Part shown: in pieces, positions 124 through 38,936 of the stretch | Layout: every line of letters starts with the position of its first letter | Numbering within the stretch: the stretch's first letter is position 1 | Source of the DNA: a virus | Lineage: Duplodnaviria; Caudoviricetes | Strand: one strand, 5' to 3' | Length of the DNA stretch: 40,508 nucleotides | IMG/VR virus record: IMGVR_UViG_3300017700_000577 | Span: 1-40,508 of that record | The notes under the pieces: model-generated | What the model saw: only the letters and a program-made list of their open reading frames with translations | Told to the model about the DNA's origin: nothing | The model's database searches: none | Program-made: the position numbers and the translations under genes

Positions 124-558
124 CAGTTGGTCCGCCATGTCGCGAGGCTCAGGGCCTACAGGCCAGCGACATTGGCACGGGCCGATCTGGAGCAGGGTCT
201 TGGGGTTGGCTGACAGGGGTTCCGAAGGCCGGATGTAGGCAGGCTTCTCGGCGACGGACTTGACGAGCTTTTCCTGCTTGGGCCGGGGCTCTTTCTTCGG
301 GCGCGGGGTGTAGGGTTTGCGGCCCGGGGTTTCGCCTCCGTAGGCTTTGTTTGTCCTCGGGGCGGAGGCTTCCCGGCGGACGCTTGCCTTCGGTCCAGCC
401 GCGCCGATCCGGTGCATGCGTCCGATGCAAGAATTTCGGGACATCGTGACCCCGAACTCCCGACCGATGGCGACGGAGACCTCTGCGGCGGACCTGCCGG
501 CCAGCCACAGACCTTTGGCGAAGTTGGTAAGCTCATCAGACCACTTTGTAGCGCCCAT
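7..558 (-). CDS. gcrA: GcrA cell-cycle regulator homologue
   Basis: N-terminal W..E....LW..G.SA.E....IG....SRN.CIGRMHR HTH and C-terminal TLLQ....CRWPVG...FC....WCPGH motif typical of GcrA. Start at ATG 558 with GGGAGG RBS. Confidence 0.88.
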   Translation of the reverse strand: MGATKWSDELTNFAKGLWLAGRSAAEVSVAIGREFGVTMSRNSCIGRMHRIGAAGPKASVRREASAPRTNKAYGGETPGRKPYTPRPKKEPRPKQEKLVKSVAEKPAYIRPSEPLSANPKTLLQIGPCQCRWPVGPEPRDMADQLFCADPAEERWCPGHKAKGSVVPPTTGNQLARSIRRYVS

Positions 559-911
559 TAGGATTCCTCCCGGAGTTGCCCTGAGGCGACGCCTTCGGCG
601 CTGGTCAACGGGCACGCCGCTACGGCGGAAAGAAGCTCGCGGCGGATATCGCTCGTAAGCCACTTGCTGTGGTGGTATCGGCGATGATCTTTCTCGTACC
701 GATGCTCGGCATGGCGGGAGCCGCTTAGAGCCCACATCATGTCGCGTTTGACGATGCGCTTCAGGCCCGGATTGCGGTCGCGCGCCTTCCAGCCTTCACG
801 GAAGGCAGCGGAAAGATCGGCTTCAGTGAAGCGCGCCCCCTCCAGCTTGACGCCTGCGTCCGTGTGTCGCCCATGTAGCGACACGCTGGGATCAGCTCCG
901 GGATGAATCAT
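558..911 (-). CDS. Hypothetical protein bracketed by inverted cassette-boundary elements
   Basis: ORF with GGAGGAG RBS; stop overlaps the gcrA start; both ends encoded by repeat elements. Confidence 0.6.
   Translation of the reverse strand: MIHPGADPSVSLHGRHTDAGVKLEGARFTEADLSAAFREGWKARDRNPGLKRIVKRDMMWALSGSRHAEHRYEKDHRRYHHSKWLTSDIRRELLSAVAACPLTSAEGVASGQLREES
563..614 (+). repeat. Dispersed hairpin boundary element (right end of gene 558-911)
   Basis: ATTCCTCCCGGAGTTGCCC followed by hairpin CGCC-TTC-GGCG and closing GGGCA. Confidence 0.8.
838..908 (-). repeat. Dispersed hairpin boundary element (left end of gene 558-911)
   Basis: Minus strand ATTCATCCCGGAGCTGATCCC, then hairpin GTGTCGC-TACATGG-GCGACAC. 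37/43 nt identical to 8334-8376. Confidence 0.8.
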
Positions 912-1077
912 CTTCTCCTCCAATTACATTAGGGTTGTCACCAGCCTTGATGGCGGCTTCGACGCGCTCCTCTAGGTCTCCCGACCAGAACTTGTCAGCC
1001 CGCCAATCGCGAACATCTTTCAAAACCTGAAGCATCATTTCAAACGCTACGGCTCTCTTGCTGCCTTTCATGGTCAT
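892..1077 (-). CDS. Hypothetical protein
   Basis: Coupled ORF in the leftward operon; ends with helix LEERVEAAIKA typical of small phage proteins. Confidence 0.55.
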   Translation of the reverse strand: MTMKGSKRAVAFEMMLQVLKDVRDWRADKFWSGDLEERVEAAIKAGDNPNVIGGEDDSSRS

Positions 1078-1574
1078 CGTGTCTCCAGTCCTTCAGCAGC
1101 CAGCGCCAGAATCTGCCGCGCTACGCCGTCGTCCATCAGCCAGAAGACGCCATCGGGGCCTTCCACGCAGAGGATTTCGCTTCCAGCCTTGAGTGTCAGC
1201 AGGCTTTTCAGACCGGGGACGCGCTCAAGGCTTTTCACCTCAATTTTCAGCCGCATGTCGCCAAGGCGTGCGACAATATCCGTATCAAACCCCTTCTCCG
1301 AGTTGCGCGATGCGGTGGCGCCGGAGCCTGCCGTTTGCTGGGCAAGAAGGCCCGAACCCGTCAGCATCCGAACAGCCCGCTTCTCGCCGCGATCACCCTT
1401 CTTGCGGGTGGCCTCTATGGTCTTGAAGCCAACGCCTCCAAATGCCGGTTTAGCAGGCGGAGGAGGCGTGCAGCCGCAGACCTTGACCCGGCGCTTGCTC
1501 GGCCCCTTCCAACGGAACATCTCGCGACATTCGTCGCAGATTTCGGGGAAGACGCTTTCGCCTACGGAGGTCAT
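1074..1574 (-). CDS. Holliday junction resolvase-like PD-(D/E)XK nuclease with N-terminal Cys cluster
   Basis: KGDRGEKRAVRML...DIVA...IEVK motif; CDEC/CGC at the N-terminus; start taken at the ATG overlapping the upstream stop. Confidence 0.7.
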   Translation of the reverse strand: MTSVGESVFPEICDECREMFRWKGPSKRRVKVCGCTPPPPAKPAFGGVGFKTIEATRKKGDRGEKRAVRMLTGSGLLAQQTAGSGATASRNSEKGFDTDIVARLGDMRLKIEVKSLERVPGLKSLLTLKAGSEILCVEGPDGVFWLMDDGVARQILALAAEGLETR

Positions 1575-1843
1575 TGAGCAGGCGTTCCAGCGAGGCCACA
1601 GAAGCCTTTCGCGGAGTTCGCGTAAGTCAGGCTGCCATCCGTGTGCCGGAGGGGATCGGACGCCGGATGCGTCTCTCGCCACGCCATGCATCCTGATCCG
1701 AGGCAAATGGACATTTTGTTGACGTCGAAGCGATTAGCCGACGCTATGGCAACGGGGCTCTTGCGTCCACTCATCTCCTCATCAATCGACACCATCTGGC
1801 GCGCGAACGGGCACCACTTCGTCTTGGCTTCGTCCTCGGTCAT
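1571..1843 (-). CDS. Cys-rich hypothetical phage protein
   Basis: MTEDEAKTKWCPF...C.GS.CMAWR...GFCGLAG pattern, a recurrent small phage family. Confidence 0.65.
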   Translation of the reverse strand: MTEDEAKTKWCPFARQMVSIDEEMSGRKSPVAIASANRFDVNKMSICLGSGCMAWRETHPASDPLRHTDGSLTYANSAKGFCGLAGTPAQ

Positions 1844-1850
1844 CTTCTTT

Positions 1851-1893
1851 CCAGTGCAAAAACAGGTTGCGGGGTCGTGGTCCCGGGATGAGC
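1851..1893 (-). repeat. Dispersed boundary element
   Basis: Minus strand GCTCATCCCGGGACCACG...TTTTTGCACTGG between a stop codon and the next start; resembles 34941-34988. Confidence 0.65.
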
Positions 1894-2069
1894 TACTTGC
1901 CTAGTTCCTGACGAAGCTGGGCATGGGTAATCTCCGCCAGCTTCATACGGGCCTGCCCTAGCCTGCGGTCGTCGTTGTCGTATTCAGCTTCACGAACAGC
2001 CTTCATGGCTTCGGCGCGCTGGTGGCGGATCGAGGGTGTGGGACGATTGAACCAAGGCCAACCGAACAT
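1893..2069 (-). CDS. Small hypothetical protein (58 aa, MFGWPWFNRP...)
   Basis: Read manually; ATG overlaps the upstream TGA; below the ORF-track cutoff. Confidence 0.55.
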   Translation of the reverse strand: MFGWPWFNRPTPSIRHQRAEAMKAVREAEYDNDDRRLGQARMKLAEITHAQLRQELGK

Positions 2070-2380
2070 CACGCATCCTCCCTGACAGGCTCAGTGATGG
2101 GGCGCTTGATAGGCCTCAAGAGGGAGGGAAGGAAATCCTCACGAGGACGGTGAATCAGCCTGAACTCACAAGCAGCGCAGCGAACCGCAGAATATGGCTC
2201 GTCCGGATCTCCGACCAACACGAGCCCAGCCCCGGGATCGTTGCACTCCGCGCAGGGTTCGCAGCCTCCCTCGATACGGCAGACGCGGCGAATCGAGCCC
2301 CTCCCCACAGCGGGAAGATCCAAGTAGGCGTCGATGTCCCGGACGGCTTCTACGAAATCCCCAGGTCCGATATCGCTCAT
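2069..2380 (-). CDS. Hypothetical protein
   Basis: Coupled ORF with CxxC motifs; MSDIGPGDFVEAV start. Confidence 0.6.
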   Translation of the reverse strand: MSDIGPGDFVEAVRDIDAYLDLPAVGRGSIRRVCRIEGGCEPCAECNDPGAGLVLVGDPDEPYSAVRCAACEFRLIHRPREDFLPSLLRPIKRPITEPVREDA

Positions 2381-2565
2381 CCCTTCACCCTCCGCGCCTC
2401 TAGCGCTTCCATAGATAGCTTGACGACCTCCGGTATCTCGCGTTTCCCTGTCGCGTATCGCCAGATGGTCACACGGTCGATGCCAAGGACTCCGGCCAGC
2501 TCGGTTTTCCAGCCATGACGCCCGTAGAGGCGCTTGCCGGCGGTCTCGAAATCAGAAGCTTTCAT
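2377..2565 (-). CDS. Small XRE/Cro-like HTH DNA-binding protein
   Basis: W.TELAGVLGIDRVTIWRYATGKREIP helix-turn-helix; first gene of the leftward operon. Confidence 0.75.
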   Translation of the reverse strand: MKASDFETAGKRLYGRHGWKTELAGVLGIDRVTIWRYATGKREIPEVVKLSMEALEARRVKG

Positions 2566-2629
2566 GTGATGAAGACTACACGAAACGATTAGGGCTGCAA
2601 TCTTTTTGTTCCGGTCCGTAATTTCCGCG

Positions 2630-2657
2630 TTGACACCAGAAACGTATGCGGTAGGTT
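2630..2657 (+). promoter_or_regulatory. Putative sigma70 promoter of the rightward early operon
   Basis: TTGACA-N16-TAGGTT in the divergent intergenic gap, followed by GGAGAG RBS and ATG 2682. Confidence 0.55.
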
Positions 2658-2681
2658 GGGATCAACAAACGGAGAGACCAG

Positions 2682-2924
2682 ATGCAACTCCTTCCCGACA
2701 CCCCGGCCTTCGAACAGTTCCTGACCGACAACCTCGGCAGCGACTACGAAGACGCCGCCAAGGAAGACCTTCTCGCCGACATGCACAGCTGCATGATCTG
2801 CGGGCACCTGTTCACCTCGGCTCAGGATTTTGAGCCTGACGCGCGGGACGTGTTCGGCGAATGGGTGTGCAACGATTGCGATGCTCTGGGCTCGCATGAT
2901 CCTGTTGGAAAGGATGGGTTCTGA
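2682..2924 (+). CDS. Small zinc-ribbon protein
   Basis: CMIC...CNDC; good RBS. Confidence 0.65.
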   Translation: MQLLPDTPAFEQFLTDNLGSDYEDAAKEDLLADMHSCMICGHLFTSAQDFEPDARDVFGEWVCNDCDALGSHDPVGKDGF

Positions 2925-3088
2925 TGACCTTCCCCCGCGACCACGACACCGATCAGAGCTTTTGCCCCGAGTGCGGCGAGCCCTGCGACACTGGCCCGAG
3001 CGTTGAGGCCTTCGAAGAGCTTGGCGAGGTTATGTGCGGAGACTGTGCCTCTGCCGCCCTCGCTGGGAAGAAGCTGGAGGGGGTTTAG
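2924..3088 (+). CDS. Small zinc-ribbon protein (54 aa)
   Basis: Read manually: CPEC...CGDC; coupled to both neighbours. Confidence 0.6.
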   Translation: MTFPRDHDTDQSFCPECGEPCDTGPSVEAFEELGEVMCGDCASAALAGKKLEGV

Positions 3089-3409
3089 ATGGCCTCCCGG
3101 AAGCTTTCACAGACGGCCGGTGTCAAGCCGAGACTGACAACGGCGCGCCTCCGCATCCTGACCGCCGCTATGGCCTCGCCGTTGGGCGTGGTGACGCGAC
3201 CGTACATGACGGGTTTTGAGCGCGTCGCTTGGGATCGCAACGCCAGAACGCTCTGCGATGCCGGGTGGCTCACAGAGTACGTCCATGGCGGCTTTGAGGT
3301 CACGGCCGCCGGTCGGGCCTCTGCCATGGAGCGCCACCAAGCGGATGCTGTCCGTGAGGGTGACCTTGAAGTCGGCGCGGGCGTCGCTTGTCGGGACCCC
3401 CTGCAATGA
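3089..3409 (+). CDS. Winged-helix-like hypothetical protein
   Basis: L.DAGWL......FEVTAAGR wHTH-like C-terminal motif; GGAGGGG RBS. Confidence 0.6.
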   Translation: MASRKLSQTAGVKPRLTTARLRILTAAMASPLGVVTRPYMTGFERVAWDRNARTLCDAGWLTEYVHGGFEVTAAGRASAMERHQADAVREGDLEVGAGVACRDPLQ

Positions 3410-3494
3410 TCCGCTTCCTCACCACCCCTAACCGTTGGGCCTCTGCCCTTGTGACGGTTGCTCTTCTTGCTGCTGCTGGAATGGGAATTGTGAA

Positions 3495-3866
3495 ATGAGT
3501 AGTGACGCGCCGTCCCCTACCCAAGAACACAAGACGCATGCGGATATACTAACCGCCGCTGCTGATCTGCTGGAGAAGCCGGGCGCTTGGACGCAGGGAT
3601 GCTTTGCTCGCGACCAGAGCGGCAAGCCATCCGCTCCAAGAGATCCAGACGCGGTCTGCTACTGCATGGCCGGCGCGATCTACAGCATCGTGGGCACGAA
3701 CAGCCGGGGCGACGCGCTCATTGACGTCTTGAGCACGAGGGCGCGCCGACAGGGTTTTCGCCACATCGCGCACTGGAACGACAAGGAGAACCGCACTCAA
3801 GCCGAAGTCGTCTCCGCTCTCCGCGCTGCTGCTGACCTCGCCCGCACCGAACAGGTGAAGGGATGA
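3495..3866 (+). CDS. Conserved phage hypothetical protein (DUF6197-like)
   Basis: L.AAADLLE...WTQG...YC.AGAI...WND...RTQAEVV.AL pattern. Confidence 0.65.
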   Translation: MSSDAPSPTQEHKTHADILTAAADLLEKPGAWTQGCFARDQSGKPSAPRDPDAVCYCMAGAIYSIVGTNSRGDALIDVLSTRARRQGFRHIAHWNDKENRTQAEVVSALRAAADLARTEQVKG

Positions 3867-4108
3867 GTTCGTCCCAGACTATCCCGTCTTCGGGCTCTAC
3901 GAGCGCCGACCCGACAAGCAGCCTCCTACTGGTCTCCCCCGTAGTCTCTGCTCTGGCCTATACGATCACAGCAGAGGCCCGGCGGGTTGATCTGGCGGCT
4001 AACGCCCGGAGCATGACGCCAGCCGTCAGGGAGCATCTTCGGAAGGATCTGGAGAAGCTCATCCAGGCTGCGCTTACCCTCATGGACGAGGTGAGCGGCG
4101 ATGCCTGA
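3863..4108 (+). CDS. Hypothetical protein
   Basis: ATGA-coupled ORF; N-terminus encoded by a boundary element. Confidence 0.55.
   Translation: MSSSQTIPSSGSTSADPTSSLLLVSPVVSALAYTITAEARRVDLAANARSMTPAVREHLRKDLEKLIQAALTLMDEVSGDA
3867..3915 (+). repeat. Dispersed boundary element at a gene start
   Basis: GTTCGTCCCAGACTATCCCGTCT then hairpin TCGG-GCTC-TAC-GAGC-G-CCGA. Confidence 0.7.
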
Positions 4109-4283
4109 CCCTCTCCTCTGGATGGGCAGGGTTCACCAGCCTTGGGACCTCCCAAAGCTCAGGCGTGATCGGGAGTGGTACGAGAGGCTTTCCAAGTCTC
4201 CCGATCAGGTCGTTGGAAACATGTACGCCGAATGGACGGAGCGTCTGTCGGCTGTGATCGAACAAACGGAGAAGATGCAGTGA
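4101..4283 (+). CDS. Hypothetical protein
   Basis: Coupled ORF directly upstream of the ERF gene. Confidence 0.5.
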   Translation: MPDPLLWMGRVHQPWDLPKLRRDREWYERLSKSPDQVVGNMYAEWTERLSAVIEQTEKMQ

Positions 4284-5011
4284 CCGCCACCGTTCCCAGT
4301 GTTTACAAGACGATTGCTGCCGTCATGGCGGATATCGCCAAGGAGGGGATCGCCAAGGACTCCCGCAACCAGCAACAGGGCTATAACTTCCGAGGCATCG
4401 ACTCCGTTTATAATGCCCTGGCTCCGATCCTGTCCCGTCACGGCCTGATGATGCTCCCTCGCGTGCTGGCCCGTGAGGTGGTCGAGCGCGCGACCAAAAG
4501 CGGCGGGGTTCTGTTTTACGTCACCGTTGACGTGGAATTCACGCTGGTCTGTTCGGAAGACGGGTCGGCGCACGTGATCAAGACCTACGGCGAGGCTATG
4601 GACAGCGGCGACAAGGCCACCAATAAGGCCATGAGCGCGGCCTACAAGTATGCGGCCATGCAGGCCTTCTGCATCCCCACTGAGGGCGACAATGACCCTG
4701 ACGCCACCACGCACGAGGTGGTCGCCAGTCGCGGTCCTGATGTCTCTGGGGGCGGTCCTGACTGGTGGGGCTGCTCGACGCCCGGCATGAGCGCCAGCGC
4801 CGCCAAGAAGGAAGGGCTGGGCGAGAAGTTCGATGAATGGCGCACCGAGATTGCCGCCCTGACTGCCGGCGCTGAATGGAGACAATGGTGCAAGGACCAC
4901 AACGAAGAGATCGCCAAGCTGCCGAAGTCGTGGCGGGTGATCCTTCGCGAGGAAGCGGAGGCGATGGCGGTGGAGCTGGGCGTGGACCTGACCAACCGCC
5001 GGAGCGAATAG
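4280..5011 (+). CDS. erf: ERF-family single-strand annealing protein
   Basis: IAKD..N.QQGYNFRGID...GEAMDSGDKATNKAMSAAYKYA..Q.F.IP..D.DPD motif; GTG start overlapping the upstream stop. Confidence 0.85.
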   Translation: MTATVPSVYKTIAAVMADIAKEGIAKDSRNQQQGYNFRGIDSVYNALAPILSRHGLMMLPRVLAREVVERATKSGGVLFYVTVDVEFTLVCSEDGSAHVIKTYGEAMDSGDKATNKAMSAAYKYAAMQAFCIPTEGDNDPDATTHEVVASRGPDVSGGGPDWWGCSTPGMSASAAKKEGLGEKFDEWRTEIAALTAGAEWRQWCKDHNEEIAKLPKSWRVILREEAEAMAVELGVDLTNRRSE

Positions 5012-5138
5012 ACACACCCCAGGTCATAGCAGCCCGTGCTTTCTGCAAAGCCATTCTGCGAGAGTTCCCGGGTACGACTTTAACCGTAGTAGAAGCGAAG
5101 GAGCGGCGGGGTCCTAACAAGCCCCGCCTGTTCGCCAA

Positions 5139-5471
5139 GTGACAATCGAGATTCCAGACTCCCACGTTCAACGCGCCTTCGATGTGCTGCGTTCGGGGGA
5201 GCACGCGCAGGCCCGCGCCGCGTATGAGTTCTCCGAAAAGCAGTTGAAGGTTGTTCTCGCCAAGGAAGAACTGGCCTGCGACGCTAAGACGGTTGGCGAG
5301 CGTCAGGCCTACGCGCTGGCGTCGGAGGCCTACGAGAAGGCTATGGCAGATCACCGGCTAGTCGCCGAGTCCTACTATCACTGGAAGGATAGGCGCGATG
5401 CGGCGTCGGCGATTTTGGATGCGTGGCGAACCTTGAGGAGCGATGAGAGGGCGTTGGGGAAAGTGGGTTGA
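5139..5471 (+). CDS. Helical hypothetical protein of the recombination module
   Basis: Coiled-coil ORF ending in I.DAWRT..S..R, commonly found next to phage annealases. Confidence 0.6.
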   Translation: MTIEIPDSHVQRAFDVLRSGEHAQARAAYEFSEKQLKVVLAKEELACDAKTVGERQAYALASEAYEKAMADHRLVAESYYHWKDRRDAASAILDAWRTLRSDERALGKVG

Positions 5472-5495
5472 CGTAGCGATGTTGCGGGGATAGCT
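5468..5495 (+). promoter_or_regulatory. Putative internal sigma70 promoter
   Basis: TTGACG followed 16 nt later by TAGCTT in an intergenic gap, before GGAGAG RBS and ATG 5524. Confidence 0.45.
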
Positions 5496-5523
5496 TCGTT
5501 ATGACAATTGCTGGAGAGAGCAG

Positions 5524-5856
5524 ATGACCACTTTTACTCCCGGGCCTTGGATTGAGTTGGACACGGAATCATCCGTCGATCTTGCTGGCGTCTCGGGCTG
5601 GCAGGATATCGGCGTAGAAGGTGGGAACGTAGTCGCCATCGCGGTAGGCTTTGCCGCGCCCTACTGGCACGAGAAGAGTCTAAAGGCCAACGCCAGCCTC
5701 ATTTCCGCCGCCCCTGATCTGTTGGAGGCGCTGAAGGAAGCGGTTGAAGACCTTGAGGCGACCCTGCGCTGGCGCGGCGAAGGATGGGAGTGCACCGAGG
5801 ACGAACTGCTCGGCAACGCCCGCGCCGCCATCGCCAAGGCGGAGGATCGGCAATGA
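5524..5856 (+). CDS. Conserved phage hypothetical protein (TPGPW/ANA.LI.AAPDLLEAL family)
   Basis: Characteristic TPGPW and ANASLISAAPDLLEAL motifs. Confidence 0.75.
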   Translation: MTTFTPGPWIELDTESSVDLAGVSGWQDIGVEGGNVVAIAVGFAAPYWHEKSLKANASLISAAPDLLEALKEAVEDLEATLRWRGEGWECTEDELLGNARAAIAKAEDRQ

Positions 5857-6161
5857 CCTACACCTCCCCCACCCGCGCCGAAGCCGCAGAACAAACCCGC
5901 CAGCGCCTTCTCCGCGCCGCTCGTGCCGAGTTCCTCGCTAAAGGATGGCGGGGATCTACGGTTCGCTCAATCGCTCGCAGGGCCGGGCATTCAACAGGTG
6001 CGTTCTTCGCTCACTTCACGGGGAAGGACGATGCCTGGGAACAGGCTACGGGGTTCCTGACGCCTGATCAGTGGGCCAAAGATGTGCTCAAGACCCTGTC
6101 CGATGGGAACGAAGTGACCAAGACGGGCAACTCCGGGATGAACAAAGAGGCATTCAAATGA
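5853..6161 (+). CDS. TetR-family HTH-only protein
   Basis: TRQRLLRAARAEFLAKGW..STVRSIARRAG.STGAFFAHF.GKD; lacks a ligand-binding domain. Confidence 0.8.
   Translation: MTYTSPTRAEAAEQTRQRLLRAARAEFLAKGWRGSTVRSIARRAGHSTGAFFAHFTGKDDAWEQATGFLTPDQWAKDVLKTLSDGNEVTKTGNSGMNKEAFK
6094..6143 (-). repeat. Dispersed boundary element at the end of the TetR gene
   Basis: Reverse complement GTTCATCCCGGAGTTGCCCGTCTTGGTCACTTCGTTCCCATCGG. First 23 nt identical to 9718-9740; similar to 34054-34104. Confidence 0.85.
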
Positions 6162-6991
6162 ATACTCAAACCCTTCCTAATACTAGGGAAGCCGTGGCTC
6201 GGTTGAACGAGCTGTGTCTCGGCACCGCTGTTGCGGCCCGTTGGGGCGAGTCGTCGGCCTATCTTTCGTGCGAGCGGCACGATGTGGAGACCGCCCTCCT
6301 TGCCTATGGAGAGTTGGTTGAGGCGGTGGCGTCCGCTGCCGATCAACTGGACGCTGCTGCGAATGCGCTCAACGATCGAAGGGCATACGAATCCGCTGAA
6401 GATTGCGAAATCCACGCCCGTGTCGCCCGCTCCCTCCTCCTCCGTCTTAATGGGGATGTAGGGGTCAGCCCGGAGTCGCCCGTCTCGCCCAAGAGCGAAT
6501 GCACGCCCAGCACTTCGGTGGAGATAGACCGGGAAGACGCAGCGGCCATCGTCCACGAGGCCATGCGTTGGGCGGTCCAATGCGCGCCTGATAAGAACCC
6601 GCCCTTCTGGGTCGATGGGGGCAATTCCTTCGTCCAAGACCGCGCTCGCAGGGCTGTGGCCGCCATCTTCGATCTGTCCAGCGCAGAACTGACCGCTCAG
6701 GGCGTGGTCCCGGGACGACCTAATCCCTCCCCCAAGAGCGAATGTGAAGGCGGCTCTCCGGTGGAGGGGCGAGACACCACGCGGCTGGACGCTAGCGACC
6801 TGACCGACGACGAGCTTCGGGCCGAACAAGGCCGCGTCGAGAAGCTTTGGGACAGCATGTTCGAGTCCGACGAAGACGGCGAAGTCTTCGAGGGTCGCGG
6901 CGGCTCTCCGGGCGAATGGATGCAGGAGCGCATGGACGAGATCGCCACCGAACAGGCGCGCCGCAGCCTCCCTACCGGAGAATCCCAATGA
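6158..6991 (+). CDS. Mosaic hypothetical protein (three modules joined at repeat elements)
   Basis: Coupled ORF with SPKSEC repeated twice at internal boundary elements. Confidence 0.6.
   Translation: MNTQTLPNTREAVARLNELCLGTAVAARWGESSAYLSCERHDVETALLAYGELVEAVASAADQLDAAANALNDRRAYESAEDCEIHARVARSLLLRLNGDVGVSPESPVSPKSECTPSTSVEIDREDAAAIVHEAMRWAVQCAPDKNPPFWVDGGNSFVQDRARRAVAAIFDLSSAELTAQGVVPGRPNPSPKSECEGGSPVEGRDTTRLDASDLTDDELRAEQGRVEKLWDSMFESDEDGEVFEGRGGSPGEWMQERMDEIATEQARRSLPTGESQ
6463..6501 (+). repeat. Intragenic boundary element
   Basis: GGTCAGCCCGGAGTCGCCCGTCT then hairpin TCGC-CCAAGA-GCGA. Confidence 0.65.
6674..6720 (-). repeat. Intragenic boundary element (inverted partner of 6463)
   Basis: Reverse complement GGTCGTCCCGGGACCACGCCCTGAG; shares TCCCGGGACCACG with the 1851-1893 copy and GCCCTGAG with the 563 copy. 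Confidence 0.6.
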
Positions 6992-7926
6992 CCCCTTCCC
7001 AACCTCTCAACACCGAATGCCAGCCCGGCGGGGCGGTGGATGACCGACGCTGCCCGTTCTGCGGCGGCCCCGGCAAGTTGATCTCGACCATGGGAGAATG
7101 GGTCGGGGTGGGGAACGGCCCGCGCGGCGGGGCGTATGGCCCAGAAAGGCGTCGCATCGTTTGCTCGGCCCTCTATGAGACCCCGTCACGGGCGTGCCCT
7201 GAGGGGCGCATCTGCGACACTGAAGTGGAAGCCTGGGCGGCGTGGAATACTCGCGCCCCCACGATCACCCCTCCGGTGGAAGGCCGCGAGGACATCGAGC
7301 GCGCGGCCTATAAGCGAGGCTGGAGCGACCGCGAGGCGGACATCCTGGAACGCGCCGATGCGATGGGTCTCCCCACCCCTCCGGTGGAAGGGTGGCGGGA
7401 GGCGGTGGCCAAGCTGCGCAAGATCGCCGCCGAAGCAAAGTCGCTGGCCGCCGACCTGAACGCGAAGCCCGACGGGGCGAAGTTCGTCGATCCCGGCATC
7501 ATGCGCATGGCCTACGCCATGGGTGCGAAGTGCGACCACTTTCTTGAGGCCGCCACCATCGTTGAAGCCGCCCTCGCCCTTCCCGCCCCCGCCGTTCAGC
7601 CGGAGGGGTGGCCTGACGCTCGCGCGGTGATCGACATCTGGGCGAACTATCACGGCATCCAGGTCAGCCCGCACCATCGGAACTGCCTGGTTACGGACCT
7701 GAACCTCGCTCTCGCCTCCCCCGACGTTCAGCGTCAAGAGGAGGGGGAAGGCCGAGACGCGGCGCGATACCGCTACCTCCGCGACCGCGATGCTGGACCG
7801 GACGGAGCGCCGCCACCAAGCGGCCTGTTCATCGGTCGCGTCCCTGAGAACCTGATCCTCACCGGCGAGGACGCCGACAGGGCAATAGATCTCGCCCTCC
7901 CCGCCGCTCCGGGAGCCAGAGGATGA
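6988..7926 (+). CDS. Lar-like (restriction alleviation) zinc-finger mosaic protein
   Basis: CPFCGG...C...C...EA.AAWNTR N-terminal domain; C-terminal DAARYRYLR...DRAID module. Confidence 0.65.
   Translation: MTPSQPLNTECQPGGAVDDRRCPFCGGPGKLISTMGEWVGVGNGPRGGAYGPERRRIVCSALYETPSRACPEGRICDTEVEAWAAWNTRAPTITPPVEGREDIERAAYKRGWSDREADILERADAMGLPTPPVEGWREAVAKLRKIAAEAKSLAADLNAKPDGAKFVDPGIMRMAYAMGAKCDHFLEAATIVEAALALPAPAVQPEGWPDARAVIDIWANYHGIQVSPHHRNCLVTDLNLALASPDVQRQEEGEGRDAARYRYLRDRDAGPDGAPPPSGLFIGRVPENLILTGEDADRAIDLALPAAPGARG
7266..7391 (+). repeat. 18-bp direct repeat CACCCCTCCGGTGGAAGG (7266-7283, 7374-7391)
   Basis: Exact copies 108 bp apart, in frame (TPPVEG). Confidence 0.85.
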
Positions 7927-8066
7927 GCGGGGCCTGCACCTGCGGTCTTCCGCGCGCGTGGCCGTGGCTGTCTTGTGGCCGCACGTCTTGCAGCATGACG
8001 CCGTTCATCCTCGCGCAACGATCCGCTGCTCGCGCACGCCGCGCCACCAAGGGAGCCGGGCAATGA
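7923..8066 (+). CDS. Small Cys-rich hypothetical protein (47 aa)
   Basis: Read manually; ATGA overlaps at both ends. Confidence 0.45.
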   Translation: MSGACTCGLPRAWPWLSCGRTSCSMTPFILAQRSAARARRATKGAGQ

Positions 8067-8305
8067 CGGACCTCAAGCCCTCTCCGCTAGCAGCACGGCT
8101 AGCCGCGTTCATAGATGCCGCTCAGAGGGTCTTCGACGCTGAGTACAAGTACGCCGCCGAGCGTGATCGTGGTGCGAACACGACGCGAGACGAAGCGGAC
8201 AGGACCTACGCGCTCCTCATGCTCGACTGGTCGCCCCAACGAGTGCGGCGGCTCCGCAAGGATGTCCTCGCCGCCCTTCCTCTACCTGAGACAGAGGGGG
8301 GATAG
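8063..8305 (+). CDS. Hypothetical protein
   Basis: Start MTDLKP with GGGAG RBS; coupled. Confidence 0.55.
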   Translation: MTDLKPSPLAARLAAFIDAAQRVFDAEYKYAAERDRGANTTRDEADRTYALLMLDWSPQRVRRLRKDVLAALPLPETEGG

Positions 8306-8376
8306 ATGGCATCCGTTGATTCACGCGCACTGGCGCTACAAGGGCGCCACACGGACGTAGACGCCAAGCTGGAAGG
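8306..8376 (+). repeat. Boundary element (left end of the Mom-like cassette)
   Basis: Homologous to 838-908; hairpin TGGCGC/GCGCCA. Confidence 0.75.
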
Positions 8377-8889
8377 CGCCGACCCTTTCACGACGGCCCC
8401 CTGTGGTGGCTCACCAAGGACGGCGACCGCTCCTGCCTCGCCCTCTACCGGCGCCACTACTCGTCGCGGAAGTCTCGGGGAACCTCCAGTCAGTTCGTCG
8501 GCCCCGGCGAGACCATCGTCTTGCGAACCGGGCCAGCAGACGCTGTTTTCGTCTGGCGCAACTTCATCGACGACAGTGGCCAAGATGGCGTCTGCTGCTC
8601 GCTCTTCCGCAACGAGGGGCCGCGCCTATCGTCCCTCCTTATCCGACAGGCTGACGCGGTCGCTGATCACGTCTGGCCTGGTCTGCGGCATTACACCTTC
8701 GTCGATCCGTCAGCTGTCCGGTCAGCCAATCCGGGTGCTTGCTTTCGACACGCTGGCTGGCGGCGATGCGGCCTCACACGGGGAGGGCTGATCGTGTTCG
8801 AGCGCACCACTCCAGAACCCCCGACGGCGATGACCAGCAGCGAAGCTGTCGCCGCACATCTAGCTCCGGGAACTCCTCAAAATGACTGA
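8306..8889 (+). CDS. Mom/GNAT-like putative DNA-modifying protein; ATG and body lie in different frames
   Basis: Frame containing 8401-8889 reads WWLTKDGD...LYRRHYS...YTFVDP..VRS.NPG.CF..AGW, resembling Mom-like phage acyltransferases. The only ATG with an RBS (8306) is one frame off. Confidence 0.55.
8828..8875 (-). repeat. Boundary element (right end of the Mom-like cassette)
   Basis: Reverse complement GAGTTCCCGGAGCTAGATGTGCGGCGACAGCTTCGCTGCTGGTCATCG; homologous to 563-614. Confidence 0.75.
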
Positions 8890-9157
8890 TCGCCCCAACC
8901 CAGACACCCTGTCGTTGGTAGAGAGGCTGAAGTCGCGAGCGGCGTATGATCGCCTCCACTATCCGCCGGCCGACCCGCTCTACATGGAAGCAGCCCAAGC
9001 CCTCCTATCCGCTGAGAAGAGAGAAGCGGAGTTGCTGGCGGCGATGAAGGAACTCGACGCAGTTCTTGGCGAAACACCCATGCCCGACTGTGCGGCCATG
9101 AACCGACTGATCGCAGCTCGCGCCAAGGCCCGCTCTCTCTCAGGAGAAGGAACATGA
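8882..9157 (+). CDS. Hypothetical protein
   Basis: LVERL...EAAQAL coiled-coil small phage protein; coupled. Confidence 0.6.
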   Translation: MTDRPNPDTLSLVERLKSRAAYDRLHYPPADPLYMEAAQALLSAEKREAELLAAMKELDAVLGETPMPDCAAMNRLIAARAKARSLSGEGT

Positions 9158-9429
9158 ACAGGTCCCGGAGTTGCCCAGCGGACGGCAAGCTCGACCCGAC
9201 AGGCTGGAGGAGCATAGAAAGCGCGCCGACAGACGGCACACCTATTGTCGCCGTGGGTCGATGGCCCGACGCTAGAGTGGGCTTCCCCCGTCACGTCCAC
9301 TGGTTGGCCGGAAATTGGCGAGAGCCTGGACGGGGCCTAGGGCCTGCGCTGGTGTGCTGGGCGTGGCATCCGCGAGACGAAACTTGGCCTTCCGAAGGCT
9401 GGACTCCCCCTCCCGAGGCAAAGCCATGA
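9154..9429 (+). CDS. DUF551-like small phage protein
   Basis: W.SIESAP.DGT motif; AGGAGAAGG RBS. Confidence 0.65.
   Translation: MNRSRSCPADGKLDPTGWRSIESAPTDGTPIVAVGRWPDARVGFPRHVHWLAGNWREPGRGLGPALVCWAWHPRDETWPSEGWTPPPEAKP
9159..9207 (+). repeat. Boundary element at a gene start
   Basis: GGTCCCGGAGTTGCCC immediately after the ATG. Confidence 0.65.
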
Positions 9430-9707: not shown

Positions 9708-9717
9708 GCAGGGTTTA

Positions 9718-9766
9718 GTTCATCCCGGAGTTGCCCGTCTCTGTCGTTTCACTCCAGACTGAGATG
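9718..9766 (+). repeat. Boundary element upstream of the tRNA
   Basis: GTTCATCCCGGAGTTGCCCGTCTCTGTCGTTTCACTCCAGACTGAGATG; outer CATC...GATG inverted ends. Confidence 0.85.
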
Positions 9767-9834
9767 AGGTATAAGAAGGCGTCGCGAGAGAGTCCGTATC
9801 AAGTCGGCTTGCGGCGCATTTAGAGATCGTTAGT

Positions 9835-9910
9835 GCGGTGGTAGCTCAACAGGATAGAGCGCCCGTTTCCTAAATGGGATATTCAGGTTCGAGTCCTGAC
9901 CAGTGCGCCA
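9835..9910 (+). tRNA. tRNA-Arg (anticodon CCT)
   Basis: Cloverleaf: D arm GCTC/GAGC with A20, anticodon stem CCCGT/ATGGG with loop TTCCTAA, T arm TCAGG-TTCGAGT-CCTGA, encoded CCA. One G:G mismatch in the acceptor stem. Confidence 0.88.
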
Positions 9911-34039: not shown

Positions 34040-34053
34040 TTGCTGTTTCCCTT

Positions 34054-34104
34054 GTTCATCCCGGATCTAACCCGTCTTGGTCGTCTTGCTCCCATCGGGA
34101 AGGG
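34054..34104 (+). repeat. Dispersed boundary element
   Basis: GTTCATCCCGGATCTAACCCGTCTTGGTCGTCTTGCTCCCATCGGGAAGGG; collinear with the 6094-6143 copy. Confidence 0.82.
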
Positions 34105-34186
34105 CGTGGCGGGCTTCGGCATCCAGTGGGTCGGACGTCGCAGTGCGTAATCATCACTTTGGCCCCTCATGGGGACGGGCAATCCC

Positions 34187-34663: not shown

Positions 34664-34936
34664 TCATGCCTGTTCCTTTGCGGGTTCGTAGAGGGAGTGG
34701 AACTCGTCGTCGGTGACCGCGAACATGTTGGCCCCTTCCTTCACGAGCCATTCGCCGACATAAGCGCAGTCGTCAGTCGCAACGATGTCGAGGCACGGCT
34801 CACCCTTGGCCGTTGTGCCGTGCGCCAGCCTCCCATCCCTCAACGCCTCAACAGCCCATACAGGGTCCTCCTGCTGGTCATGGCCTCCTGTCCATTGGAA
34901 GGCTTCTATGAGTTGGGGTTTTCTTTGGTAGAGCAT
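34664..34936 (-). CDS. Conserved phage protein (Y.RKP..IEAFQW / PGDYG-like)
   Basis: YQRKP..IEAFQW...VGEWLVK...F...YE motif. Confidence 0.7.
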   Translation of the reverse strand: MLYQRKPQLIEAFQWTGGHDQQEDPVWAVEALRDGRLAHGTTAKGEPCLDIVATDDCAYVGEWLVKEGANMFAVTDDEFHSLYEPAKEQA

Positions 34937-34940
34937 TAGT

Positions 34941-34988
34941 ATTCATCCCGGGATTTGTCACTGGCGTGCGGTTTTGCACTGAAGATGG
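34941..34988 (+). repeat. Dispersed boundary element filling an intergenic gap
   Basis: ATTCATCCCGGGATTTGTCACTGGC-GTGC-GGTTTT-GCAC-TGAAGATGG. Confidence 0.7.
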
Positions 34989-35183
34989 CTAGCCGCGCTC
35001 TTCGTATTGGGTGATTATTTCCTCGATGCACTTATCGCGGCTAGCGCAATGTCCGTACATCCAGCCCGGCGACTCCCCATCAACGTCTTCGTGCTGGTAG
35101 TGCCAGTCACAGTTGCGCGTACCGATGGGCGGCGGATCGAACCAGATGCGCCACGGACCTATCGTGGTGTCGTGCGCGCTCAC
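34989..35183 (-). CDS. Small conserved phage protein (PPIG.RN.DW)
   Basis: W.I.FDPPPI..RN.DW motif; GTG start with GAGG RBS. Confidence 0.6.
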   Translation of the reverse strand: MSAHDTTIGPWRIWFDPPPIGTRNCDWHYQHEDVDGESPGWMYGHCASRDKCIEEIITQYEERG

Positions 35184-35938
35184 GGCTTTTCCTCGCAGAA
35201 AATCCCGCACTCCGGCATCTTCAGGCTCTTGAGCGCGCGTCCTTTGGCGTCGGCGGGCAGTTCGTCCAGATAGATGCGGCGGTTCTTATGGCGAACCAGC
35301 TTGGCCCCGATTCGGCGTGACTGCTCAGCCCTGGCGGCGAACACATCCGGGTCAACGGCGCGAACAAGATTCCAGTACGTCGGCGACGTGGCCTTCACAC
35401 AGCCCTTGCAGTTGGCGTTCGGGTAGCCCTGCGAATAGGACCGAGGAAGCGTTAGGCCTGCCGCTGTGATGTGGTCGAAGCAATCCTGCTTCGTCATGCC
35501 CGCATCAATGAGAACCGGCAGCACGTTGTTGCGCTCGGTCAGCGTGAACCTGTTGTGTCTCGCCGCCTCCTCAGCGGTAAAGCCTAGGACGTGCCAATCA
35601 ACGTGGACTTCCTTCTCCCAAAGCTGACGCGCCTCTTTCTTCAGCTTGATCGTGCATGGCGCGCCGAGCGGACCGCTCATAAAGGCGCGGTCATCCCATA
35701 CATCGACCGCGCTGTTGGTCGGGTAGCGCGGGTTAGATGCAAACTCGATAGGCCACCGAAGCCACTCAGACACGTCACGCAGAAAGCGGTTGTTGTCATT
35801 GTCTTCTTCGACGACCGGGTTGTTGACGATGCGCACCGTGTGCGTGCTGGCGTACTTGTCGAGCGTCAGCTTGGCCGCCATCGCGGATGCTGCGCCGCAG
35901 GAAAACCAGACGGCGATTGTTTCCTTCCTGTCGCTCAC
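35180..35938 (-). CDS. PAPS-reductase / PP-loop family protein
   Basis: WFSCGAAS, CT.KLK, GFT.EE..R, GY.NANC.GCVK and C-terminal ECGIFC. Confidence 0.75.
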   Translation of the reverse strand: MSDRKETIAVWFSCGAASAMAAKLTLDKYASTHTVRIVNNPVVEEDNDNNRFLRDVSEWLRWPIEFASNPRYPTNSAVDVWDDRAFMSGPLGAPCTIKLKKEARQLWEKEVHVDWHVLGFTAEEAARHNRFTLTERNNVLPVLIDAGMTKQDCFDHITAAGLTLPRSYSQGYPNANCKGCVKATSPTYWNLVRAVDPDVFAARAEQSRRIGAKLVRHKNRRIYLDELPADAKGRALKSLKMPECGIFCEEKP

Positions 35939-36372
35939 GCCTTCCCCTCCAGCTTATCTAGCTCTGCGACTAGGTGAGAATGGCGTTTCTTGGATTTGCG
36001 CAGCCTTTCAATCTCGGCGATTAGGCTAAACCGGAGAGAGGACACAGCTTTCTCGCTTTCCCAGGACTCATCCTCCGCACAGATCGTGTCCACGTCTTGT
36101 TGTGGGATGGGGTTTGAGCGGTAGGTGGTTGTATTTGCAGGCTTTTTGTTCGTCCCGGAGTTGCCATTCGCGAGGCTCTTGGCCTCGACTTCCACGGGCC
36201 GGCCATCTGGACCTGGGGCGTAGTTGGCCACGGTCATGGGACGATCTAGCGGGTACAGGATGTCCACACGGCTCCCCTCAGAACCTGCGTCCACAAGCTG
36301 GGTGATGCGCTCGGAGTAGGCCGCGCTGCTGTCCGCCTTCTTCCCGAACAGTTGCTTGATGAAGTTGATCAT
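35935..36372 (-). CDS. Mosaic hypothetical protein
   Basis: AGGAG RBS; internal boundary element read through in frame. Confidence 0.55.
   Translation of the reverse strand: MINFIKQLFGKKADSSAAYSERITQLVDAGSEGSRVDILYPLDRPMTVANYAPGPDGRPVEVEAKSLANGNSGTNKKPANTTTYRSNPIPQQDVDTICAEDESWESEKAVSSLRFSLIAEIERLRKSKKRHSHLVAELDKLEGKA
36148..36199 (+). repeat. Intragenic boundary element
   Basis: GTTCGTCCCGGAGTTGCC then hairpin CGAGGC-TCTTG-GCCTCG. Confidence 0.75.
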
Positions 36373-38044: not shown

Positions 38045-38565
38045 CCGTTCCTCAGACCACCAAGACCATTGAGCATCGCCCACATACGGAACGGCCCCTG
38101 TAGCCACTCCTGACGCGCCGCGTAGATCGGCCCGACAACCTCGTCACCGTCCAGCCGGCACTTGTCGAACCACGCCAGCGCGCGCTCATCGGGGAACTTG
38201 AGCTGGAAGGCGGCGCGCAGCTTCTCATCGGGGAACCGGCGTTCGGGAAGCGGGATCACAACCGCAGGCGTTTCGTCTTCCATCCAGTGCTCATACCGTC
38301 TCGACCGGAGCCACGGTCCTAGCCCCGGCCCGCCTGATCGCTTAAGATCGTCGTCGTTCTTCAGATAGGCCAGCAGCGCCTTCAGGAGAGCCTCGTGGCC
38401 CCCGGCGCGCTTGGCGTGGTCAGACCACAGGGGCTTTAGGATCGAGAGGCCCTCGGACCGTTTCTTCATGGTGCCGGGCAAGGCCGCCCAACCCTGAGAG
38501 AACGAACTGCGCCCCTCGAATGCCTCTTCCTTCTCTTCAGGGAAAAGCCTGACAACCTTGGTCAT
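38041..38565 (-). CDS. Hypothetical protein, possibly replication-initiator/loader related
   Basis: F...W.A.P....R...WL...RYE.W resembles C-terminal domains of phage replisome organisers; follows the DnaA_C gene. Confidence 0.45.
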   Translation of the reverse strand: MTKVVRLFPEEKEEAFEGRSSFSQGWAALPGTMKKRSEGLSILKPLWSDHAKRAGGHEALLKALLAYLKNDDDLKRSGGPGLGPWLRSRRYEHWMEDETPAVVIPLPERRFPDEKLRAAFQLKFPDERALAWFDKCRLDGDEVVGPIYAARQEWLQGPFRMWAMLNGLGGLRNG

Positions 38566-38936
38566 CCAGCCACCTGATGCGAAAGCCTCCGCTCCAGCCC
38601 CTCCATACGCTTCACGCTGTGATGCTTAAGGGGCTCTCCGGCCAAGACAGCTTCGTGCTGCCTTATGCCATTCCAAGCTGAGCTGTGGTCCCGTCCGCCG
38701 AAGAACTGGCCGATCTGATAGTAGGACAGGCGGGGCTTGCCGTCGATCTTCTGTTGCCGAAGAATCCACATCGCTTCGAACCGCGCTTCACACAGGCTCT
38801 TGCCCCGGCCCGGGCCGACTAGATCCGCCGCCCGCATCCCGTAGCGTGCCGCCACCATCTCGGTGACTTCGTGCATGGTCTGGAAGCGGGCCACGTGGCC
38901 CCAAGTGTTGCCTAGGGAGTAGGTCAAGGGTTTCAT
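38562..38936 (-). CDS. DnaA C-terminal (domain IV) HTH protein
   Basis: VA.RYG....DL.G..R.....AR.EAMW.......S..QIG.FFGGRDHSS. Confidence 0.85.
   Translation of the reverse strand: MKPLTYSLGNTWGHVARFQTMHEVTEMVAARYGMRAADLVGPGRGKSLCEARFEAMWILRQQKIDGKPRLSYYQIGQFFGGRDHSSAWNGIRQHEAVLAGEPLKHHSVKRMEGLERRLSHQVAG

Follow-up and report, generated by a model that had tools for sequence, protein, structure and literature searches.

Results

Two units of the window with related ends

The window, i.e. the whole analysed stretch of 40,508 nucleotides (IMG/VR record IMGVR_UViG_3300017700_000577), was determined to be a complete phage genome with a 123-bp direct terminal repeat and 40,385 bp of unique sequence. 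Two short units of this genome, A and B, carry unrelated genes between related, facing and hairpin-forming ends, and the family of these ends is the subject of the present analysis. Unit A, a complete cassette of 348 bp (562..909, minus strand), carries the orphan gene 558-911 (117 aa), the stop codon of which overlaps the start of the phage gcrA gene (PF07750; 7..558, minus strand) located directly downstream of the unit. The left end of A (835..909, minus strand) is composed of the head ATTCATCCCGGAG (909-889), a hairpin at 883-865, a second hairpin at 860-849, and a tail CTGGAGGGG (845-836) resembling a ribosome-binding site (RBS). The right end of A, read inward (562..610, plus strand), starts with the head ATTCCTCCCGGAGTTGCCC and continues into a bulged hairpin with a TTC loop, which reads GAA on the other strand. 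Unit B, a cassette of about 571 bp (8307..8877, plus strand), carries a GNAT-fold, Mom-like core of PHROG 24928. The left end of B (8307..8379, plus strand) has the head GGCATCCGTTG of the second subfamily described below, a hairpin at 8331-8349 and the tail CTGGAAGG; the head (8307-8318) is of a subtype other than the heads of A, and the end doubles as the coding sequence of a 0-frame leader from the ATG at 8306. The right end of B (8828..8877, minus strand), a degenerate head with a TTC-loop hairpin, was missed by the profile models and was added by hand via its match to the right end of A.

The first-pass annotation of the window had reported that the left ends of A and B match in 37 of 43 positions (880-838 against 8334-8376) and the right ends in 21 of 26 (585-610 against 8853-8828), and both counts were reproduced exactly. 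The reported change of the left stem from TGTCGC/GCGACA to TGGCGC/GCGCCA was present, its 5' partner (881/8333) lying one base beyond the 43 aligned positions, and so were both compensatory pairs of the right hairpin. A further compensatory change, C-G to T-A, was found in the second left hairpin (860-849). The left match scored 49.7 bits and exceeded the best self-hits of all 20 Markov-4 simulated genomes (31.1-45.4 bits). The right match by itself, 31.1 bits, was within genome-wide chance; given its position, it was significant, with 0 of 3000 random 85-mers matching the right end of A as well as that of B does. The left ends of A and B are closer to each other than either is to other family members and, therefore, share a recent ancestor. 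The cores were unrelated as claimed (best BLASTP E value 0.21): gene A matched only itself and had no homologue among the 13 candidates scored, and the check for paralogy, when run, resulted in the cores not being paralogues. The heads are inverted at the two ends as had been described, whereas the termini proposed earlier did not hold, the real ones being located further out (562-583 and 888-909 in A).

Size and anatomy of the end family

The carriers of the ends were gathered by pattern scans of three collections, BLAST searches of isolate phages and retrieval of whole carrier records. The head of A in its consensus form GTTCATCCCGGAGTTGCCC matched the window 7 times at ≤4 mismatches, compared with 0.25 expected matches. 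Three subfamilies of ends with the common terminus (G)TTCATCC were distinguished; the left head of B belongs to the second one, GTTCATCCGTTG, and has a 24-nt near twin in the carrier G068. Three profile models picked up 86 ends in 20 records, phage or phage-like, of 539,448 bases in total, compared with 0 in the reversed sequences; the training ends match the profiles by construction. Two finds were held out: a left and a right end flank the annotated cytosine methyltransferase gene of OM868079.1 (21253-22083), and the carriers L180 and L187 accounted for 12 of 13 hits, with 0 in the control. The BLAST search of phages and plasmids gave real hits only with OM868079.1 and PP438432.1. The exact left end of A or B had 0 hits in viral contigs, and the use of gcrA as a bait for relatives of the window in the viral contigs resulted in 11 candidates, 0 of which were confirmed. 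The exact 19-bp head had 10 hits in 185,579 species genomes; 9 were judged to be chance and 1 was located on a phage-like contig.

Candidate hits were set aside for the absence of a partner end, a hairpin or a profile match, partly by eye. This applied to 11 of 16 viral pattern hits, taken as chance, to 9 of 10 prokaryotic genome hits and to 12 of 23 metagenome hits, where 2 more were the window's own contig and 3 repeated viral records. Two other scans resulted in 13 hits (7 set aside, 2 already known) and 18 hits (12 set aside, 4 known). The record G057 was scored in intermediate analyses and was later dropped from the carriers.

Read inward, an end consists of the head, a variable spacer of 10-15 bp and, ~24-31 and ~36-45 nt inside the terminus, the two arms of a hairpin. 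The left ends finish in the RBS-like word CTGGAG or CTGGAA, often directly 5' of the start codon of the cargo gene, and the right ends stop a few bases short of the next ATG. The ends sit at the gene starts and gene ends of accessory regions, overlap coding sequence and have, as judged by eye, no T-run. GTTC was the terminal tetranucleotide in 40 of the 78 ends scored, ATTC in 10 and GGTC in 7. At gene starts, the head is translated as HPG, SRS/SSQ or FIPE; the readings at gene ends are GQLR, GNSG or APGT. Since it is used in all three frames, in sense at the starts and in antisense at the ends, the constraint is on the DNA and not on the peptide; it is also difficult to assign to RNA alone. 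Two special arrangements were observed among the carriers, namely a cargo-less doublet of about 60 bp with two facing heads and one common hairpin (G003:C1:5799-5861), and nine modelled ends in 6.3 kb of prophage (L180, 1-6337), two left ends of which are stacked 39 bp apart (715-754).

The z-score of the hairpin at the fixed offset was above those of both flanks (p ~0.002, n=43). The stems were compared in ungapped alignments, anchored on the loop by the analyst. In the TTC-loop stems, 85% of the cells were paired with 18 both-side changes (slid controls 27-47%), and in the CAAG-loop stems 69% were paired with 19 both-side cells (slid controls all lower); in both cases 0 of 500 shuffles were as good. 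The relatedness of the ends inflates these covariation numbers, and, as some of the ends were also chosen by eye, the p-values are optimistic.

Facing pairs, cargo and allelic exchange

Among 75 ends, 17 facing pairs closer than 1.5 kb were counted, whereas 10.0 were expected for random strands (p 0.004). In the later set of 86 ends, 19 facing pairs were closer than 1 kb. The expectation that the ends would flank other cargo was borne out by many further unrelated cargoes, including allelic replacements. Twelve cargo cores were compared and gave no mutual BLASTP hit; five of them have homologues elsewhere that are not bracketed by a pair, and a homologue of the L130 cargo likewise has a right end. 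The few cargoes that could be named are an HNH nuclease and a DNA (cytosine) methyltransferase. Between the facing ends of the 86-end set, no long enzyme-like open reading frame (ORF) was found apart from a methyltransferase. No unit was found to recur in near-identical form at another site, few close relatives being available for this comparison. In the case of the B core, 80 homologous viral loci had no adjoining end (one weak hit, E 3.1), and the whole records behind 50 of these loci contained a two-mismatch head in 1. The lack of ends at the 80 homologous loci suggests that the B core was captured in this lineage.

At the same locus of the related phages L118 and L129, the ends are 98-100% identical and the right flank 94%, and the cores are unrelated. 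The flanks of L130 and G001 are 94-96% identical around unrelated genes, and the breakpoints coincide with the outer edges of the two heads of L130. In G001, the gene opens with a left end of the second subfamily and lacks a right one; the left ends of L130 and G001 are of different subtypes with <10 bp in common. G002 and G005 have a common right end together with its outer flank and different genes inside. In the sole public run found, a low-depth contig fuses the distal left hairpin of A to a canonical head, which is in keeping with the left and right ends being one family.

The gene of unit B

The stretch 8306-8889 had been described as a single Mom-like gene. It has a core with a predicted GNAT fold, and its 584 nt are not one reading frame; the core would need a -1 frameshift. 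The frame of the ATG at 8306 reads through to 8791, and the GNAT core is located in the -1 frame with no start codon before 8521. The slippery heptamer C CCT TTC (8383..8389, plus strand) is in phase for a predicted -1 slip, which would join a leader of 28 aa to a core of 166 aa, resulting in a 194-aa fusion. The source contig of the public run agrees with the window at the slip site. For comparison, 67 distinct loci (the window and homologues) were used after the removal of duplicates and short flanks. The heptamer together with a start in the +1 frame was present in 12 of 17 loci without an in-frame ATG/GTG and in 1 of 50 loci with an in-frame start (Fisher p 1e-8, uncorrected for kinship). 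The members of the heptamer subgroup of PHROG 24928 (L021-L025, L038, L040, L043, L048, L065, L069, L097) have, like the window, no in-frame start and a short +1-frame leader ending in CCCTTTN. Judged from this comparison, a conserved programmed -1 frameshift is likely in the subgroup.

The B core was predicted to adopt the GNAT fold with a pLDDT of 89. The best PDB hit was AAC(6')-Ib (E 1.1e-3, TM 0.64), and all the named top PDB hits were GNAT proteins. No Pfam or NCBIfam hit was obtained with the core. The nearest named Atlas clusters were PF22559 and PF25680 Mom (0.87), with Mom on 21% of the members, and the Mom membership of the modelled core is only a lead. Unlike Mom and the phage GNAT-like acetyltransferases, the core of this subgroup has no start codon of its own and would need the -1 slip. 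If the start of this candidate GNAT/Mom-like DNA-modification enzyme is supplied by a conserved slip, its production might be throttled in this way.

Other ends and the genomic setting

The window holds about 14 copies of the 60-75-bp end, namely 13 modelled ends and the hand-added right end of B. All of them are confined to small-gene regions; both strands and all three frames are used, and 0 of the 13 modelled ends fell inside the 23.6-kb structural block (p 1e-5). This podovirus-type block extends over about 10-33.5 kb, the remaining parts of the window being small-gene regions. A third facing pair of 259 bp (6462..6721, plus strand) is located in frame within the mosaic ORF 6158-6991. An unpaired right-type end at 6093..6144 (minus strand) closes the TetR-family gene 5853-6161, and the one at 34053..34116 (plus strand) is 79% identical to it. 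Unpaired left-type ends form the starts of ORF 3863-4108 (3866..3932, plus strand) and ORF 9154-9429 (9157..9216, plus strand). Weaker ends of the third subtype are located upstream of ORF 1571-1843 (1840..1894, minus strand) and ORF 34664-34936 (34940..35000, plus strand). The unpaired end at 36147..36219 (plus strand), the hairpin loop of which is reversed (CTCTTGG), lies inside ORF 35935-36372, and an unpaired end with a perfect head (9717..9769, plus strand) is located upstream of a tRNA-Arg gene. This tRNA-Arg(CCT) at 9835-9910, the sole tRNA of the window, lies 100 bp inside that end; the Rfam scan of the window matched nothing but the tRNA, leaving the ends without an Rfam match. Truncated left-end tails (CCCAAGAGCGAATG, CTCCGGTGGAAGG) occur as in-frame linkers in the mosaic ORFs 6158-6991 and 6988-7926 (6484-6523, 6727-6766, 7002-7041, ~7260 and ~7355 of the window).

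Among the genes of the window are gcrA, HNH genes, and genes for an Erf-like annealing protein and a methyltransferase. A tyrosine integrase was not found in the window by profile search. The DnaA C-terminal-like gene at 38562-38936 represents the most widely shared family among the carriers, with a cluster in 9 records. The presence of gcrA in the window points to an alphaproteobacterial host. The gene is also encoded by four further carriers of the end family. Upstream of gcrA, three relatives had no end and G068 had a left-type end running into the gene; at G068:C1 ~11375 the left-type end forms the first codons of gcrA and is near-identical to the end at G068:34633. OM868079.1 and PP438432.1 are recorded as Synechococcus phages, and the combination of gcrA with the end family in OM868079.1 suggests an alphaproteobacterial host. 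The 41.8-kb phage-like contig L107 / G056:C44, which has six ends and was found in a genome labelled Flavipsychrobacter, is probably a mis-binned phage.

Discussion

The preferred reading, given an even chance, is that A and B are members of a family of small, non-autonomous phage gene cassettes, bounded by facing hairpin-forming ends that an enzyme acting in trans would recognise in folded, single-stranded form. This reading relies on the inverted homologous ends, the covarying stems with C-GAA-G-type loops, the absence of a duplication, the terminal GTTC (40/78) and the precedent of IS91. Elements of the IS91 family cleave at GTTC, next to a subterminal palindrome, without creating a duplication (PMC13181058), and motifs of the repetitive extragenic palindrome (REP)/Ssn type are recognised as single strands (PMC3733652, PMC11893778). 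The trans-acting enzyme would capture cargo genes and place them, nicking at or beside the terminal GTTC adjoining the hairpin in the manner of IS91-family HUH transposases; nicking at GTTC would account for the absent target duplication. The units would survive only at gene junctions, where the RBS-like words of the ends would keep the operon translated. Resident near-identical ends might double as crossover points for phage annealing proteins, leading to cargo exchange, and the ends could later decay, leaving single halves and linkers in frame. The existence of such an enzyme, its nicking and any mobility of the units are inferred from this pattern.

A number of results weigh against the trans-acting enzyme. 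No target-site duplication was detected, as direct repeats were not above expectation at 4 boundary offsets x 6 lengths in 13 anchored pairs of 17. An empty site was likewise missing upstream of gcrA in the 4 relatives compared, all of which were too distant for DNA comparison, and among the outside-flank matches; the empty-site alleles and target-site duplications sought since the first-pass annotation thus did not appear. The perfect palindrome RTTCATCCCGGGATGAAY, considered as a possible empty target, had 0 hits in viral contigs, and this model was dropped. A GIY-YIG gene was detected in 0 of 11 carrier records (control positive in 13 of 14) and a Y1 (RAYT/TnpA) gene in 0 of 11 phage records (control positive in 6 of 14), the latter search covering phages, so that a host copy is possible. 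An integrase was present in 7 of 11 carrier records and in none of the window's genes. The Y2 search gave 0 of 13 records and was uninformative, no control being positive either. One public sequencing run, probably the source of the window, was listed with its DNA and none with its RNA; the contigs of this run showed no excision or inversion joint for A or B. As many as 41 of 75 ends are unpaired. The strength of the hairpin was less distinct in two further comparisons, with only p 0.02 for random windows and p 0.05 for chance heads, and the inflated covariation numbers were mentioned above. The identity of L118 and L129 extends 50 bp outside the left head, and the swaps are replacements, as opposed to additions at an empty site, and lie at gene boundaries, the usual place of phage mosaic joints; G002 and G005 also swap genes at many gene-tail blocks of 35-62 bp, 95-100% identical, which are not of this family. 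Of the non-autonomous, cargo-carrying element proposed at first, the unrelated cargo between the ends has stood, whereas transposition is not supported: duplication, empty site and transposase were not found, and the majority of the ends have no partner.

An appreciable, though lower, probability is assigned to the main rival, boundary repeats without a dedicated enzyme. The ends would then be modules shared by the starts and ends of genes, possibly left over from an extinct element, and unrelated genes would be swapped between them by ordinary homologous or homeologous recombination of the Erf type, as in the T4-type PeSL cassettes, for which such shuffling has been published (PMC2839356). 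The window encodes an Erf-like protein, the L118/L129 swap took place within near-identical ends with the identity continuing outside, and related phages swap at other short boundary blocks as well. The prevalence of unpaired ends, the stacked or truncated ends acting as in-frame linkers, and the failure to find a duplication, an empty site or an enzyme speak for recombination too. However, recombination alone does not explain the inverted copies of the head at opposite gene ends or the covariation of stems despite sequence turnover. The breakpoints of L130/G001 at the heads are also left unexplained, the left ends there differing in subtype with hardly any common sequence (<10 bp). The enzyme and recombination readings are compatible in sequence, as an enzyme could make the units and recombination could then trade the cargo.

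A repeated regulatory element at the RNA level, in which the hairpin and RBS would serve translational coupling, processing or protein binding and which was copied to early genes with no role in DNA movement, is improbable. The location of the left ends in first codons, closing in an RBS-like word, that of the right ends just 5' of the next ATG, and the covarying stems would suit such an element. It is difficult to reconcile with the sense orientation at gene starts and antisense at gene ends, which would put complementary sequences in the transcript, with the ends at 6462, 9717 and 36147 lying inside ORFs or against transcription, and with the lack of an Rfam match. Still less probable is a classical DDE-mobilised miniature inverted-repeat transposable element (MITE) with cargo, moved by a host IS transposase: no direct repeat was above expectation in the 13 pairs, the exact 19-bp head was at chance level in prokaryotic species genomes, and one unit was not met in near-identical copies at different sites. 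The imperfect terminal inverted repeats around units of 0.3-0.8 kb without a transposase do resemble MITEs, which viral genomes are known to contain (PMC11602168). Single-gene duplication with divergence of the core, or chance, is hardly credible. The mutually closest left ends of A and B agree with it, but the cores are unalignable, B has a GNAT fold with 80 homologous loci and A has no homologue, and the ends flank many other cargoes. Simple duplication is already refuted, unless the core of A is a decayed GNAT gene.

It has long been asked by what route temperate phages acquire and exchange small accessory genes exactly at gene boundaries, and the answer usually given is rare illegitimate recombination together with selection. 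In the present case, unrelated genes are bracketed by a single definable family of DNA ends in phages whose virion modules differ, and allelic swaps occur at these ends. The family is a concrete substrate for testing whether folded ends are nicked, whether circles form and whether exchange depends on homology. Should there be a dedicated enzyme, the ends would belong to a new gene-capture system; otherwise, they are still a clear case of structured boundary modules. More doubtful, and proposed only tentatively, is a phage-restricted cassette system of a new type, in which a single-strand DNA recombinase or HUH nuclease would recognise inverted GTTCATCC-hairpin ends, capture arbitrary genes and format them with a start codon and an RBS for operon junctions. 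If true, such a system would be an engine dedicated to the mosaicism of phage genomes. Neither the end family nor the frameshift of the B gene is described in the literature searched, most subscription papers being outside its reach.

Comparison with known systems

In the way it works, the end family is similar to non-autonomous units of the REPIN, IS91 or MITE type and to the PeSL boundary cassettes, but it fails, or leaves open, a defining feature of each known system compared. Integron attC and pdif modules are small single-gene units without a duplication, and attC forms bulged hairpins with short loops of the C-GAA-G type. Unlike integron cassettes with their single attC, the phage units have a facing pair of ends around each gene and form no tandem array, and 0 of 75 ends begin with the attC core GTTRRRY. 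The head does not appear to resemble the consensus of a dif site. The lambdoid boundary sequences are comparable markers of phage gene swaps. Possible similarities of the ends to the 3' end of type I-E CRISPR repeats, the SOS box of alphaproteobacteria, relaxase nic sites and CsrA loops were considered as well. The ends of IS91 are the unequal ori and ter ends on one strand and not inverted copies; in contrast, the left and right phage ends are inverted homologues, only about half of them begin with GTTC, and no transposase was found, which adds to the points against the trans-acting enzyme.

Like MITEs, the units have ends of non-coding capacity in the form of imperfect inverted repeats, and ORFs are fused at the ends (PMC2229807, PMC11602168). 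Unlike MITEs, they show no duplication and no multicopy identical units, carry a different gene in nearly every unit and have GC-rich covarying hairpins. The short tag, the AT-CC element, the hairpin and the arrangement as inverted doublets around genes are similar to REPINs, CGTC-tagged REPs and the Ssn-related motifs NTS and dRS3 (PMC3733652, PMC11893778). Unlike in REPINs and CGTC-REPs, the head of the phage ends is not itself palindromic, the published SRM pattern was matched by 0 of 75 ends, and 11 records had no GIY-YIG/Y1 gene; unlike REPs with hundreds of chromosomal copies, the ends were found in phages. The T4-type PeSLs are promoter-terminator units in non-coding DNA, whereas the phage ends are facing pairs which overlap coding sequence and have RBS-like words; both are repeated hairpin-bearing modules in phage accessory regions and mark gene swaps (PMC2839356). 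With the IS91 family and its non-autonomous derivatives (IS801, IS1294), the phage ends have in common the absence of a target-site duplication and, in about half of the ends, a terminal GTTC adjoining an imperfect palindrome in subterminal position (PMC13181058).

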